Shown: positions 37,453 through 44,414 of the stretch, one piece after another
Numbering within the stretch: position 1 is the stretch's first letter
How the letters are laid out: every line of letters begins with the position of its first letter
Origin: an uncultured Clostridia bacterium
GTDB lineage: Bacteria > Bacillota > Clostridia > Christensenellales > Borkfalkiaceae
DNA: 64,000 nt
NCBI GenBank assembly: GCA_947053655.1
Contig: CAMRTO010000006.1
Location: 867-64,866, forward strand
Direction of reading: 5' to 3'
Made by a program: the position numbers and the translations under genes
The notes under the pieces: generated by a model
Told to the model about the DNA's origin: nothing
The model's input: only the letters and a program-made list of their open reading frames with translations
Databases searched by the model: none

Positions 37453-38220
37453 TTAATTTTTCCAACCGTTTTCGTTTTTAAAATTTCTGAATTCCGTTTG
37501 ATAATTATATAAATCCGAAGGAATAAACCAACTTATACTGTTATCCGAAGCTTTTACAAATGCGACAAAATAAATATTTTCAGAAGTATAACAGTCAACC
37601 TTTCCGTAAACGATAAAGTTATTATCCGAATCGAATGTTAAAAAATCAGTAAATATATTATAAGTGCCATCGGCAAGATTAAATTCAGAAACAGCTTCTT
37701 TTTTAACACCTTTACCTGCTTCGGGCATTTTTGTTTTATATTTGCCGATTTGCTTCTTAACACATTTTCCCAAGTCGACATCAGCGCCCCAATCGTTTAA
37801 AGCTTTAATATGCTGTTTTTCCTGTTCAGTAAACTTTTGTAGCGGTGTTCCGTAGGCTTTTTGCTCTTTAATTAAATAGTTTAAATCTTCATAATAGTAA
37901 ACGTAACCTTCAACGGATTGTTGGCTGACTATTAACGCAGAAAACGAAGGTTCTCCGCCCGAATAATACCTTTCACGATACTGAAATAAAGTCCTACCGA
38001 AGTTATCCTCCTCAAGAATTTCTATTTCAGAATCTTTTACTCTTTCGGTCGAATATGAATGCCCAAGATTCCATAAAACACTGTTAATTGCGACGGTATA
38101 TAAATCCTGCCTTTTACCCGAATAGCCTTTATATATACATCCGGAAAGCGAAAACAATAAAACCAAAACGCACATTGCAGACACACAACATATTATCGGC
38201 TTTTTTATTCTTTTAATCAT
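37453..38220 (-). CDS. lipoprotein, candidate cognate immunity protein of the RHS toxin
   Basis: 255 aa. Signal peptide plus lipobox LFSLSGC. Starts 26 nt after the RHS stop with its own SD. Visibly AT-rich. No recognisable family. Confidence 0.6.
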   Translation of the reverse strand: MIKRIKKPIICCVSAMCVLVLLFSLSGCIYKGYSGKRQDLYTVAINSVLWNLGHSYSTERVKDSEIEILEEDNFGRTLFQYRERYYSGGEPSFSALIVSQQSVEGYVYYYEDLNYLIKEQKAYGTPLQKFTEQEKQHIKALNDWGADVDLGKCVKKQIGKYKTKMPEAGKGVKKEAVSEFNLADGTYNIFTDFLTFDSDNNFIVYGKVDCYTSENIYFVAFVKASDNSISWFIPSDLYNYQTEFRNFKNENGWKN

Positions 38221-38246
38221 AAATTATTCCCCCGCCATAACAAAAA

Positions 38247-41200
38247 TCAATACAAGCCTGCCCAAAAGTAATTTCCTATGTTTACAATCGGAACCGCCGC
38301 CAAAGCCAGATACAAAAAAGCATTTCTTCTTTGAACTTTAGAAGCGCCGTTTGCTAACGTAGAATCGCCCCAGATACTGGCAGATAATTCCCATGGCGTA
38401 TTGTCGCCGTTCTTTACCACAGACGGCACTCCGATCCGCAACAAATAATTCATTATCCCAAGCGTCATAAGTTGATTTATATGTCCGCGTTCATGCTTTA
38501 ATACTTTAACGTCTTGACTTTTATCAAAGAATATTACCCCAAGAGACATTGAGCCTCCCATTCCGCTAATTCTTATTACCGGAACTCCTTTGTAAAAGGA
38601 CATTACTTGAGCTTTTGCCGCACTGTCCGCATTGGTGTTGTAAGGATTCCAACCTATTGCCGACATATCACTTTTTATGGCGCTATTAAACACCGAGCCG
38701 ACCAGCCCCGCACCGTAAAAGCTAAGCGTTAAACCGAACTCAGCCGCGACGGCAAATAAGGGACTTACCAACGCGGGCAATATCGCAGACGAAGTAATTG
38801 CCACGCCGACTGCGGCTAAAACTATACCGCCGACAACTTTGCCCGCCTGCACCCACCAGTCTTTTTTCCAAATCTCATACCACTTTGCTTTCATTCCGCT
38901 CGGGTCATAACACATTACGGGATTATCGCCGCAATAAGCGTAGAGATTAAGTCCGTTTACGCTTTCATAGTCAGCGTATTCTATGCTGTCCTGTGAGATG
39001 AATCTGCCAAGCTCGGGGTCGTAATACCGCGTTTGTAAATAATATAAGCCGGTTTCCGTATCGTAATAGTAACTGCGGTATCTGAACGGATTTAAATTGC
39101 CGATATGCTGCATATTGACTATGTCTTGTCCGTTAGCGTCTATTACCGCATGATTGCCCCAACAATCGTAAATATATCTTACCACAATGTTACCGTCACG
39201 GTCAAGTATTGCTACAATATTCCCCTGAGCATCCTTACGGTAAAAATACTGTTTATCCGCATATATCACGCCCGCAATGCCGCTATTGTCATAGATAAAC
39301 TGTAACCCGTTGCTTTGCGCTATTAAGTTGCCTGCACTGTCGTAAACATAATTTATCGCATTTTTATTTACGCGCCTGCCCGTGCCGTCGTAAACAAAGC
39401 TTACCCCGTCATAGTTTGTAAGTACTTTGCCGTAGCTCCACTGCAACGCTTTGCCGCGGTATACCGCGGGACTGCCGAAGTTGTTATATGTGAACTGTTC
39501 TCCGTTATAATTTGTAAGCCTGTCGCCGTCGTAGTCGTAGGTGAAGTGTTTACAAATTGTTTCGGATAGCTCCTCTCTGCTTTTTGAGGAATACTCGTAC
39601 TCGCAACGCTCGGTTATGTTACCGTTTGTATCGTAAGTATACAGTACGGTTTTGTTTAAAGGTTTGTTGTCCTCTCTTACAATTCTGCCCAGAGTATCAT
39701 ATGAATACTTTGCAAAAACATGACCGTTTTCCGTTATCTTGCAGATATTTCCGCGGCTGTCATAGGAATATTTTATGTTTTCCTTAATACCGTTACCGTT
39801 GCCGAACCATACCGTAGAAGGCATTGCTGTTGCATGGTCGCCGACTTTGCGATAACTGATATACTCGCAAGAAATTTTTTTGGAACCGTTTAAAATTTCC
39901 TTGCCCGTATTCCTGCCGTTTACGTCAGTTAAAGGTTTGAACGTATACTCTTTGAATTTTACCGAGCATAGCCGACGTGCCGCATTATCTTCATAATTAT
40001 AATAATACTGGTGCCCTACTACGCCCCTTATATCTTTTCTTACTAACTCGTTACATTCGTTATATGCGAAGTTTTCCGATAAAATAGTTGACGAGTTTTT
40101 TAACGATCTCGCTGCTCTTAAAACTCCGTAGTTGTTGTAAGTATAAGTTAAGATATATTCCTGGTTACCATCGTCACTGCCGATACTGTTTATGTCTACT
40201 CTTTCCAACTGCTGTTTTACGTTATATTTTTTTTCGCAGAATTTTGTGCCATTTATTTCTAACGTCTGCGTTCTTGCAGCACCGTCCGCCGTACTTATAA
40301 CCATATCGCTTTGCGTAAAAGTATACGTTGCTTCGCCTTCGAAAAGCGTTGTTTCCGTACTGTCGACTTCGTACTTTACTCTTTCCGATTCTATCTTGTT
40401 TTCTTTATAAGTATATTTCGCATAGACGCTTCCGTTTAATGAAGCACATTTTTTGCGGCGGTTATAGTCATATGAATAGAATATAGTCGTGTTGCCGCTT
40501 TTTACTTCCACAGGCATGCCGCAGACATACAATATATCCGTCGTGTTTGCTTCGCCGTTTGCGTCGCTTGCAGTTACGGAAGTTATTCTGTCGTTATACG
40601 CATTGCGTCCGTATGCGATTTTACCGCCGTCGGGATAGGTAACAGAATTAATTACGTTAGTACCGCTCTTATAACCGTATTCCGCAACGCGCGCACCGGT
40701 TTCGTCGACGTCAGCGATTACCTGACCGTTTTCCGCAGTAACGCTTTCGTTATAAAACTTTGTGGAACTGTCCAGCGTGTTGTAGCTGACCGTTTTTACC
40801 GCGTTGCCGTTTTTATCGTAGAAGCGTTCCTCGATATTTTTACCCGTAACAAGCTCCTCCCCCTCGACGTAGCTTTCGGTAAACGAAAGACTGCCGTGCG
40901 AATTATAACGGTAATTCGTCACGTAATTTTTTTGCGTGATTTCGCCGTTAACCTCGGTATATTCGCAGGTTTTTACGGAAATTAAATTTTCCTCATTGTC
41001 GTAGGAATAATTGATTTCCGTCTTAACGCGCGCGGTGTCGGATATATTTTGCCAGTCTGAAACCGACGAAACAAGCAAATTAACATTGTCGTATTTTTCA
41101 ACCGTGGTAACAGTTTTATTGTCTGGCTTCGTCACGGTTACCGCCGTTACCGTTTTGCCGTCGGTGTAGTCGTATACGTAATTTGTGACCGCCTCAAAGC

Positions 41201-43946: not shown

Positions 43947-43958
43947 TTTATTCTCCTT

Positions 43959-44414
43959 TTAGTTTTTTTTGCGGTTTGTCAGAATTATTGTTTCGCTTTC
44001 CGGCGTCTGCTTTTCCGCGTCTTGAGGTTTTTCCAGACTTTCCTTGATTTTTTCAACCGCTTCCTTATTTGCCTGAATTTCCGTTTCCGTCAAAAACTTT
44101 TTTTCGGACGGAACGAATTTTTCCCAAAACGCGTAAATCGCAAGGCTTAGGCTTACCGCAGACAGCCATTTCATGAAAAACTGCGCGTCGAAATGGGATT
44201 GTCCTGTCAGTAAAAAGTTTATAAGGGTCGTCATTCCGAAGCCTGTAACCAACGGCAGAAAAACTATGAAGCGCGTAATTTTTTTCGCGCAAGTAAATTT
44301 TTCCGCCAGCTTTTTTAAGGGCAGTTTTATAATGCCCGTCAGGATAACCGTCGCAAGGGCCGCAATTGCGGTTATCCCGCCGTCATCCGATAAAAGCGCG
44401 ATTAACTTATCCAT
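43959..44414 (-). CDS. three-TM membrane protein with a charged C-tail (holin-like topology)
   Basis: 151 aa. TM candidates ITAIAALATVILTGIIKLPL, ITRFIVFLPLVTGFGMTTLINFLL and WLSAVSLSLAIYAFWEKFV, then a Lys/Glu-rich tail. Stop lies 12 nt before the RHS ATG. Confidence 0.5.
   Translation of the reverse strand: MDKLIALLSDDGGITAIAALATVILTGIIKLPLKKLAEKFTCAKKITRFIVFLPLVTGFGMTTLINFLLTGQSHFDAQFFMKWLSAVSLSLAIYAFWEKFVPSEKKFLTETEIQANKEAVEKIKESLEKPQDAEKQTPESETIILTNRKKN

Follow-up and report, generated by a model that had tools for sequence, protein, structure and literature searches.

The subject of this analysis is a three-gene cassette in a 64,000-nucleotide stretch of contig CAMRTO010000006.1 from an uncultured Clostridia bacterium, hereafter referred to as the window. 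On its minus strand, the cassette encodes a 151-aa membrane protein (44414-43959), a 1899-aa rearrangement hotspot (RHS) protein without a signal peptide (43946-38247) and a 255-aa lipoprotein (38220-37453). The reading we favor, to which we give a probability of about 0.5, is that the cassette consists of a polymorphic RHS toxin and a dedicated export or release partner that acts by a holin-like route. Its parts differ in strength: the 151-aa protein is probably a dedicated partner needed for the export or localization of the RHS protein, and the formation of a holin-like pore by this protein is a more tentative proposal.

Linkage of the small membrane gene to signal-less RHS genes

Loci with homologues of the 151-aa gene were obtained by scanning genomes and metagenomes and through twelve exact-protein look-ups; their analysis with profile searches and BLAST yielded 20 informative non-redundant groups. 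In 17 of these 20 groups, the small gene heads a same-strand operon ending in a full-length signal-less RHS gene. Eight groups share the architecture of the window (type A), in which the RHS gene directly follows the small gene with a gap of 11-20 nt where measured, or with an overlap in L025. In the non-adjacent groups, 1 to 10 genes lie between the two, with a single intervening gene in one group (L018). The small gene opens a longer operon with the RHS gene in last position in seven groups (type B), and eight small genes separate the two in one group (type C, L031). Three groups are without a downstream RHS gene (L007, L011 and L029, the last being a 2.9-kb contig), and RHS remnants are present in two of them, namely a homologue of the immunity gene in L007 and three RHS C-terminal fragments preceding the small gene in L011. 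Moreover, a remote family member, P0235 (E ~1e-7), still overlaps the start of a gene for a 1791-aa YD-shell protein, and the link thus reaches the edge of detectable homology. The initial annotation of this DNA had raised two opposite outcomes, neighborhood to RHS genes rather than to endolysins, or confinement to prophage lysis modules with no enrichment next to RHS genes. The former was found, with an enrichment close to complete and no homologue in phages.

The intervening genes of type B operons encode a thymidylate-kinase-like P-loop protein, an NTP_transf_5 protein, an unknown protein of ~270 aa, one or two acyl-carrier proteins, an AMP-dependent ligase, often a nitroreductase, a BtrH_N/C39-like protein and a small protein. 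In the long-operon loci (L020:1763-12236, L034:6456-15100, L027:1560-10258, L039:5672-16340 and L042:2070-12741), the start of the P-loop gene overlaps the small gene. Such genes might activate an acyl or aminoacyl group, load it and pass it to an amine, and the RHS N-terminus (Gly2 or lysines) is one candidate acceptor. In the type C loci (L031:8001-16753 and L043:5655-7934), one of the small genes encodes a T4 baseplate Gp10 C-terminal domain (PF21939, E 6e-13), and the upstream region contains helix-turn-helix (HTH) regulators and another RHS gene.

The small protein itself belongs to a coherent family. Among 1.84 billion representatives, it has relatives in 92 close clusters and, at E <=0.001, in 212 clusters; no member exceeds 270 aa or is fused to another domain, and those bearing a source name or organism title are labeled Clostridia, Clostridiales, Christensenella or Ruminococcus. 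Pfam, NCBIfam and PADLOC gave no family for the 151-aa protein, the Pfam and NCBIfam scans also covering 21 alignment members singly. An identity as an anti-phage defense protein was dropped for want of a PADLOC match. The 151-aa gene is the founding member of an unannotated RHS-linked family. Only two helices of the protein are strongly hydrophobic (aa 13-31 and 50-68); the third (aa 79-98) is Ser-rich and amphipathic, with a Kyte-Doolittle (KD) hydropathy of ~1.4 in the window and a family mean of 0.99; a charged C-terminal tail follows. Conserved in the family are a basic juxtamembrane loop (TG..K.P.K.LA.K), helix 2, helix 3 (WLSxVSLSLAIYAFWEKFVPSxKK) and a short amphipathic helix. Across the family, basic residues prevail in loop 1 (K+R 5.3 versus D+E 0.95) and in the segment that follows helix 3, and acidic residues in the N-terminal tail and loop 2, from which a topology with three spans, the N-terminus outside and the C-terminus inside is predicted. 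W83 and W97 flank helix 3 in the manner of a membrane span. The AlphaFold2 (AF2) model comprises four helices with a mean predicted local distance difference test score (pLDDT) of 65, and Foldseek found no match to it in BFVD below E 0.2.

At the end of the tail, behind a linker that is acidic and variable in the family, the 151-aa protein carries the motif I-I-L-T-N (43974-43988, minus strand, translation checked), which follows the family pattern K-[IV]-[IVL]-L-x-[NG]-x-K. This motif is present in most of the 151 non-redundant members, with I143 and L145 near-invariant. The RHS protein starts with a motif of its own, the heptapeptide M-G-T-L-K-F-N (43926-43946, minus strand; family motif M-[GE]-[TI]-[LI]-[KR]-[LFMI]), which is conserved in homologues with just 27-32% overall identity. 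The two motifs go together. Both a K-I-I-L-type tail and an MGT[LI]KL-type RHS start are present in 14 loci (the window, L001, L002, L003, L004, L005, L006, L008, L009, L018, L019, L020, L034 and L039), neither is present in five (L022, L025, L027, L031 and L042, with YEYE or coiled-coil tails and unrelated RHS starts), and no locus is discordant. A raw Fisher test on this pairing gives ~1e-4, a value that overstates the evidence as the loci are related. The pairing also holds in type B operons, where the two motifs are encoded ~6 kb apart, which rules out a constraint at the gene junction or at the RNA level. In addition, L027 and L042 retain the same RHS beta-sandwich with a different RHS N-terminus and a YEYE tail, indicating that the N-terminal peptide varies in step with the tail of the partner rather than with the adjoining domain. 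Each motif is a short stretch of alternating hydrophobic and polar residues carried by a flexible linker, a form that would be expected of a strand-pairing contact.

In the window, the 151-aa and RHS ORFs share a frame (468 nt apart) and are split by a TAA stop and four codons. A fusion of the two by stop-codon read-through was considered and ruled out, since the frames differ in L002, L003, L005 and L008; as other loci do not preserve the common frame, programmed read-through is unlikely.

Within its first 100 aa, the RHS protein has no hydrophobic segment (maximum hydropathy 0.36 in a 19-aa window), an in-frame upstream extension of its ORF is impossible, and Pfam and NCBIfam searches detected no LXG, WXG or PAAR domain in it. 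These results agree with the initial annotation, which had described the protein as having neither a hydrophobic signal peptide nor an LXG/WXG- or PAAR-type delivery module; the N-terminus matched no known Sec, type VII secretion system (T7SS; LXG) or other trafficking domain. In the AF2 model, aa 3-7 form a short beta-strand of low confidence, and the heptapeptide is followed by a variable, low-complexity linker of ~35 aa (aa 8-43, pLDDT <50). Next come a beta-sandwich (aa 45-280; 43107-43814, minus strand; pLDDT ~75-88) homologous to the N-terminal region of Bacillales RHS proteins and, beyond it, a second and more variable beta domain. A distant homologue of the beta-sandwich matches DUF7948, and a Foldseek search with the N-terminal model against the PDB returned only generic beta-sandwich or carbohydrate-binding module-like matches with TM-scores <=0.3. 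A double-glycine leader ('DGG', aa 42-44) was also considered and ruled out, the relatives having DDG, GEG or DPA at this site. A low-confidence loop of the beta-sandwich holds a cysteine cluster, C-S-C-G-C-A-C-R-L-C (43497-43532; aa 139-150), which could bind metal or form disulfides; it recurs as CGCxCxxC in the type A homologues L003, L004, L005, L006 and L008, and relatives of type B or from Bacillales lack it.

The origin of this N-terminus is illuminated by Sec-dependent relatives. The beta-sandwich is homologous to that of plasmid-encoded RHS proteins (69 records) annotated as 'DNRLRE domain-containing' from Priestia, Bacillus, Paenibacillus, Cytobacillus, Rossellomorea and Streptomyces. 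The alignment of the window protein with the Priestia protein (BLASTP E 1e-24, 27% identity, aa 24-348) begins immediately past the signal-peptide cleavage region of the latter. A classical Sec signal peptide is present in all five Bacillales homologues inspected, and the N-terminal hydropathy maximum (12-aa window, first 45 aa) is 2.4-3.3 in Bacillales versus <=0.85 in 15 of 15 partner-linked RHS proteins. Six plasmid loci were inspected (five from Bacillales and one from Streptomyces), none with the small membrane gene upstream of the RHS gene, and no relative of the small-protein family occurs in the entire plasmid collection. In the Clostridia clade, then, the MGT peptide and linker have taken the place of the Sec signal that the Bacillales homologues carry at this position, and this replacement goes together with the small membrane gene. 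The DNRLRE profile NF033679 matches the Priestia and Paenibacillus RHS proteins but not that of the window. In one Priestia megaterium locus (L044:2470-4479), the gene upstream of the Sec-dependent RHS gene, at a gap of 17 nt, is annotated as 'family 10 glycosylhydrolase', and a wall- or glycan-active partner in Sec-dependent relatives may merit comparison.

The RHS toxin, the downstream lipoprotein and the genomic setting

Profile hits and structure matches identify the 1899-aa protein (38247-43946, minus strand) as a signal-less RHS/YD polymorphic toxin. Its RHS-associated core (aa 1593-1685; 38892-39170, minus strand) was detected by TIGR03696 (E 9.6e-21, 74 bits, cut-off 32.5), and YD repeats were detected by TIGR01643 (E 3.6e-8) and PF05593 (E 7e-4, just under its cut-off). 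The checked translation of the core contains YYDPELGRF and ends in NPVMCYDPSGM, which marks the boundary to the toxin tip, and the YDPSGM ahead of the tip corresponds to the DPxG aspartyl-protease motif. The C-terminal shell and core align locally to solved Rhs structures (e.g., 7q97, E 1.3e-17), and the core also matches the TcC structures TccC3 and YenC2.

The tip (aa 1686-1899; 38250-38891, minus strand) consists of two hydrophobic Gly-rich helices, with hydrophobic segments at aa 1708-1743, followed by an HExGH domain. No Pfam family was found for it. Its 45 homologues are mainly RHS C-terminal fragments, among which H132, E133, G135 and H136 are invariant; in the window, the motif reads HERGH (38481-38495, translation checked). 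The tip is therefore a putative zincin-like metallopeptidase. One of the homologues, the RHS fragment P0273 with the same preceding hydrophobic helices, is annotated from Prevotella, and the tip thus appears common to Gram-positive and Gram-negative gut bacteria.

Tip and shell evolve differently. The shell is 75-95% identical to that of sister loci (75% for L001) with some mosaic patches, and identity between the window and L013 drops from ~90% to 24% directly past the core. L001 shares the tip family of the window and diverges in the C-terminal half of the tip, and the genes 3' of the RHS gene differ among the window, L001 and L013 (255, 172 and 133 aa). Orphan tip and immunity modules were seen in L003, L013, L017 and L007. 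Tip turnover, differing downstream genes and orphan modules together represent ordinary polymorphic-toxin behavior. The mosaic stretches in the alignment with L001:10469-16204 fall at columns 301-400 (21% identity), 801-900 (39%) and 1201-1300 (43%), the first of which lies in the second N-terminal beta domain, a candidate receptor-binding part. A role of the 151-aa protein in immunity was examined and ruled out: the protein is 96% identical in L013/L014 despite an unrelated tip, and it is conserved while toxin tips and downstream genes (L001, L013) change.

The 255-aa protein (37453-38220, minus strand), encoded directly 3' of the toxin gene, begins with a signal peptide in which a basic n-region and a hydrophobic core precede an LSGC lipobox. 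It is presumed to provide cognate immunity from the outer face of the membrane. As the immunity candidate is a lipoprotein, the toxin is suggested to act from outside the membrane, and extracytoplasmic action also fits the secreted status of the relatives of the RHS N-terminal domain. A 47.5% identical homologue of the lipoprotein is encoded in the small-gene array of the RHS-less locus L007 (2193-6574), in which the small membrane gene is kept, the RHS gene is absent and five small membrane or lipoprotein genes follow; this locus looks like an orphan immunity island after toxin loss.

The initial annotation had described the cassette as self-contained, with co-directional genes, short spacers, separate ribosome-binding sites and terminators at both ends, and we found it so. 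The spacers are 12 nt (151-aa gene/RHS gene) and 26 nt (RHS gene/255-aa gene), and a separate Shine-Dalgarno sequence precedes each gene (AAAGGAGGAAGT-ATG, AAAGGAGAATAAA-ATG and GGCGGGGGAATAATTT-ATG). The 5' side is insulated by the intrinsic terminator of the upstream 783-aa lipoprotein gene (44546-44586, minus strand), which has a 17-bp GC-rich stem and a T run (dG -31.9 kcal/mol, z -7.0). Three successive hairpins 3' of the 255-aa gene (37228-37450, minus strand) close the operon, namely 37405-37450 (dG -18.3 kcal/mol), 37283-37325 (-17.6 kcal/mol) and 37228-37262 (-10.2 kcal/mol). An automatic terminator scan picked up three of these four flanking hairpins. With a G+C content of 0.33-0.44 versus ~0.49 in the flanks, the cassette forms a low-GC island in surroundings of core chromosome, which include the ribosomal-protein/SecY/map/rpoA operon, an ABC sugar transporter, a GH28 gene, a BatA-MoxR-VWA cluster and surface proteins. 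As the initial annotation had also stated for type VI secretion system (T6SS) and T7SS genes, no T6SS, T7SS or phage gene was found among the ~30 larger annotated ORFs of the window, which are housekeeping genes, small ORFs being only partly scanned. The nearest relative of the locus is L001, from a mouse-gut metagenome-assembled genome labeled 'uncultured Christensenella sp.', with flanking genes identical in kind. These data indicate a polymorphic-toxin cassette of three genes on the chromosome of a Christensenellales-like member of the Clostridia. Among the neighbors, the 783-aa lipoprotein immediately upstream (44606-46957) has a Big_3 domain, and L001 has an additional 739-aa lipoprotein gene between this gene and the cassette. 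A 1546-aa surface protein with Listeria-Bacteroides (Flg_new) repeats is encoded at 56258-60898.

The proposed holin-like route and alternative explanations

According to the favored reading, the small protein would be a dedicated RHS export or release factor. With its N-terminus outside and its C-terminus inside, its conserved K-I-I-L strand on a flexible linker would capture the newly made RHS protein by its N-terminal strand on the cytoplasmic side of the membrane. The Ser-rich helices would then oligomerize and open a holin-like lesion through which the toxin exits, possibly with lysis of some producers. Outside the cell, the beta-sandwich region would bind a target, the HExGH tip, with the hydrophobic helices leading, would act at the target envelope, and the lipoprotein on the outer membrane face would protect the producer and its kin. 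A more radical version, which we consider less likely than not, takes the small protein and the MGT[LI]KL peptide as a minimal, cargo-specific export device of monoderm Clostridia that needs neither Sec nor a T7SS nor a phage lysis cassette: the tail would recognize the N-terminal strand of a ~200-kDa RHS toxin, and the small protein itself would supply the passage across the membrane. In that version, the longer operons would add substrate-modifying or energizing parts (the P-loop kinase-like protein, the acyl-ACP ligase, the carriers and the BtrH/C39-like transferase).

Holins are small proteins with one to three transmembrane (TM) helices and a charged cytoplasmic C-terminus; the small protein has two strong TM helices and a weak third, and its charge distribution fits the predicted orientation. 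Several observations weigh against the proposed route. None of the 21 family members matched a holin family of Pfam or NCBIfam, and no relatives were found by a scan of 2.9 million viral contigs (IMG/VR) or by tblastn against 50,697 phage genomes. PHROG families matching the 151-aa protein are only of unknown function (E 0.006 or weaker), and its Foldseek matches are all non-significant. No peptidoglycan hydrolase or endolysin occurs among the operon genes covered by a Pfam scan or precomputed Pfam calls, which apply to part of the loci, and a ~215-kDa folded cocoon would have to cross the wall without such an enzyme. The two-gene form has no energy source, and helix 3 is only weakly hydrophobic, so the tail could lie outside the cell. 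The loci that support the motif pairing are related and not phylogenetically independent. The search for secretion genes covers the 64-kb window, and a T7SS could be encoded elsewhere in the genome. Finally, the reverse check, whether MGT-type RHS genes have a partner, was made on a sample of two: the partner is present in L037, but no small gene lies within 2.6 kb upstream of the RHS gene in L038. In this locus (L038:2630-6304), the RHS gene, which starts with MGTIKLKK, is broken into two ORFs (616 and 606+ aa), with an HTH protein and small unknown ORFs upstream, and it may be a decaying copy or be served in trans.

By homology, phage relatives and a hydrolase partner, then, the sequence does not identify the 151-aa protein as a phage-type holin. 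The label 'holin-like' given to it in the initial annotation was not upheld beyond size and topology, as there is no holin or phage homology, significant structural match or hydrolase partner behind it. Weak matches to DUF4231, Cap15_TM and DUF2976 (best E 0.001-0.035) look compositional between TM proteins and were set aside. A holin-like mechanism is plausible but unproven. To our knowledge, matched terminal motifs and the replacement of a Sec signal go beyond what classical holins are known to do, and a cargo-recognizing partner is therefore suggested.

Several other explanations were weighed against such a partner. The small protein could be a tether rather than a pore, anchoring the RHS protein by the matched strands for surface display or vesicle loading, while translocation proceeds by another route or by lysis. 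The matched motifs do sit on flexible linkers, helix 3 is weak enough (family mean KD 0.99) to make a two-TM form with an external tail possible, and no wall hydrolase was seen in the operons whose genes were scanned. On the other hand, the basic segment after helix 3 and the flanking W83 and W97 speak for a genuine membrane span, a tether leaves the exit of a signal-less 215-kDa protein from the cytoplasm unaccounted for, and the Sec signal of the Bacillales proteins at the same position is an export device and not an anchor. We regard a tether as improbable, although it is the likeliest of these alternatives. Still less probable is export of the RHS protein by a T7SS or other machinery encoded elsewhere in the genome, to which the small protein would contribute as an accessory or specificity factor. 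In Bacillota, several T7SS variants show genetic linkage to RHS proteins (PMC11217815), and only 64 kb of the genome is in view. However, the RHS N-terminus consists of a strand, a disordered linker and a beta-sandwich rather than a helical LXG/WXG domain according to Pfam, NCBIfam and AF2, no Lap/WXG-like partner gene or EssC adjoins it in any locus group examined, and published T7SS partners are small, soluble and helical proteins and not membrane proteins (PMC11217815).

There is little to recommend a small protein without any export role, that is, a regulator, a second means of self-protection against hydrophobic tips or a membrane sensor controlling expression. Its sequence reveals no function, and some members show weak, non-significant similarity to SLATT/DUF4231 and Cap15 TM domains, which would leave room for such roles. 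Against them stand the conservation of the small protein while tips and immunity genes are exchanged, its position as the first operon gene with tight or overlapping spacing, and the matched motif at the extreme RHS N-terminus together with the loss of the Sec signal, which would be unexpected for a regulator. Chance adjacency, or an RHS gene that is a dead remnant, can practically be dismissed: the missing annotation alone speaks for it, whereas synteny is kept in three operon architectures down to ~30% identity, the 5.7-kb ORF is intact, the tip turns over as in polymorphic toxins and sister loci hold orphan modules.

Comparison with known systems

In a 2026 study, most toxin-positive gut Bacillota were without an associated secretion system (PMC13556189), and the cassette addresses the open question of how polymorphic toxins leave gut Clostridia that have no T7SS. 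For RHS proteins of Bacillota, the links described to date are to T7SS variants (PMC11217815). The literature on Rhs/YD proteins with holins or secretion in Gram-positives, Firmicutes or Bacillota contained no description of this partner family or motif pair, and a 2012 survey of polymorphic toxins does not mention holins. The cassette points to a possibly undescribed way for such RHS toxins to leave a Gram-positive cell. If the partner is indeed the exporter, this would be a new trafficking mode for polymorphic toxins and a very small system for a 215-kDa protein. The locus provides a two-gene handle on this question, with a partner family tightly linked to signal-less RHS proteins and a short motif pair that can be mutated or swapped, and the Sec-dependent Bacillales homologues are a natural control. 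As a marker, the small gene would also help to locate further toxin loci in metagenomes.

Related in sequence to the window protein are the DNRLRE RHS toxins of Bacillales plasmids (e.g., Priestia megaterium WP_207372556.1), which have the same succession of beta-sandwich, YD shell, RHS core, tip and small downstream genes. They differ in having a classical signal peptide at the N-terminus and in lacking a small membrane partner. T6SS Rhs effectors, which are confined to Gram-negatives and delivered by the T6SS, carry prePAAR/TM segments within the Rhs protein and have a soluble Eag chaperone as their partner. They share with the cassette an RHS cocoon, membrane-spanning helices and a dedicated upstream partner gene. 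However, their TM helices lie inside the Rhs protein itself and their partner is soluble, whereas the cassette has no PAAR domain by Pfam and NCBIfam and no T6SS genes in the annotated ORFs of the window. The LXG/RHS toxins of T7SSb with Lap partners (PMC11217815, PMC10765036) are likewise Bacillota polymorphic toxins without Sec signals, the export of which relies on N-terminal features and small proteins encoded just upstream. They differ in having helical N-terminal domains and soluble helical-hairpin partners and in requiring the EssC ATPase, none of which was seen at the cassette.

Holin-dependent release is known for the large clostridial toxins of Clostridioides difficile, in which TcdE is the holin (PMC12150058, PMC10516005). 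As in the cassette, a very large signal-less toxin of a Gram-positive is encoded beside a small membrane protein with a charged C-terminal tail, and no canonical secretion machine is involved. In contrast, TcdE is a recognizable phage-type holin accompanied by the endolysin remnant TcdL, whereas the window protein has no holin or phage relatives and carries a tail motif matched to the N-terminus of its cargo. We know of no comparable cargo-matching feature in TcdE.

In Yersinia entomophaga, a holin/endolysin/spanin cassette (type X secretion system, T10SS) releases an RHS-containing Tc toxin complex (PMC10847048, PMC10847046). Here, too, the release of an RHS-cocoon toxin (TcC) is aided by a holin-type membrane protein. 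This system belongs to a Gram-negative, employs a full phage lysis cassette, lyses a specialized subpopulation and releases many other proteins; moreover, the lysis cassette is not the conserved first gene of an RHS operon, and no cargo motif is known for it. The view of the initial annotation that holin-assisted release of an RHS toxin was undescribed stands for the Gram-positive pairing, of which we found no description, but not more generally, since T10SS release of the Tc toxin has been published (PMC10847048). By analogy, the cassette would work most like TcdE-dependent toxin release (PMC12150058), with a further resemblance to the T10SS of Yersinia (PMC10847048).

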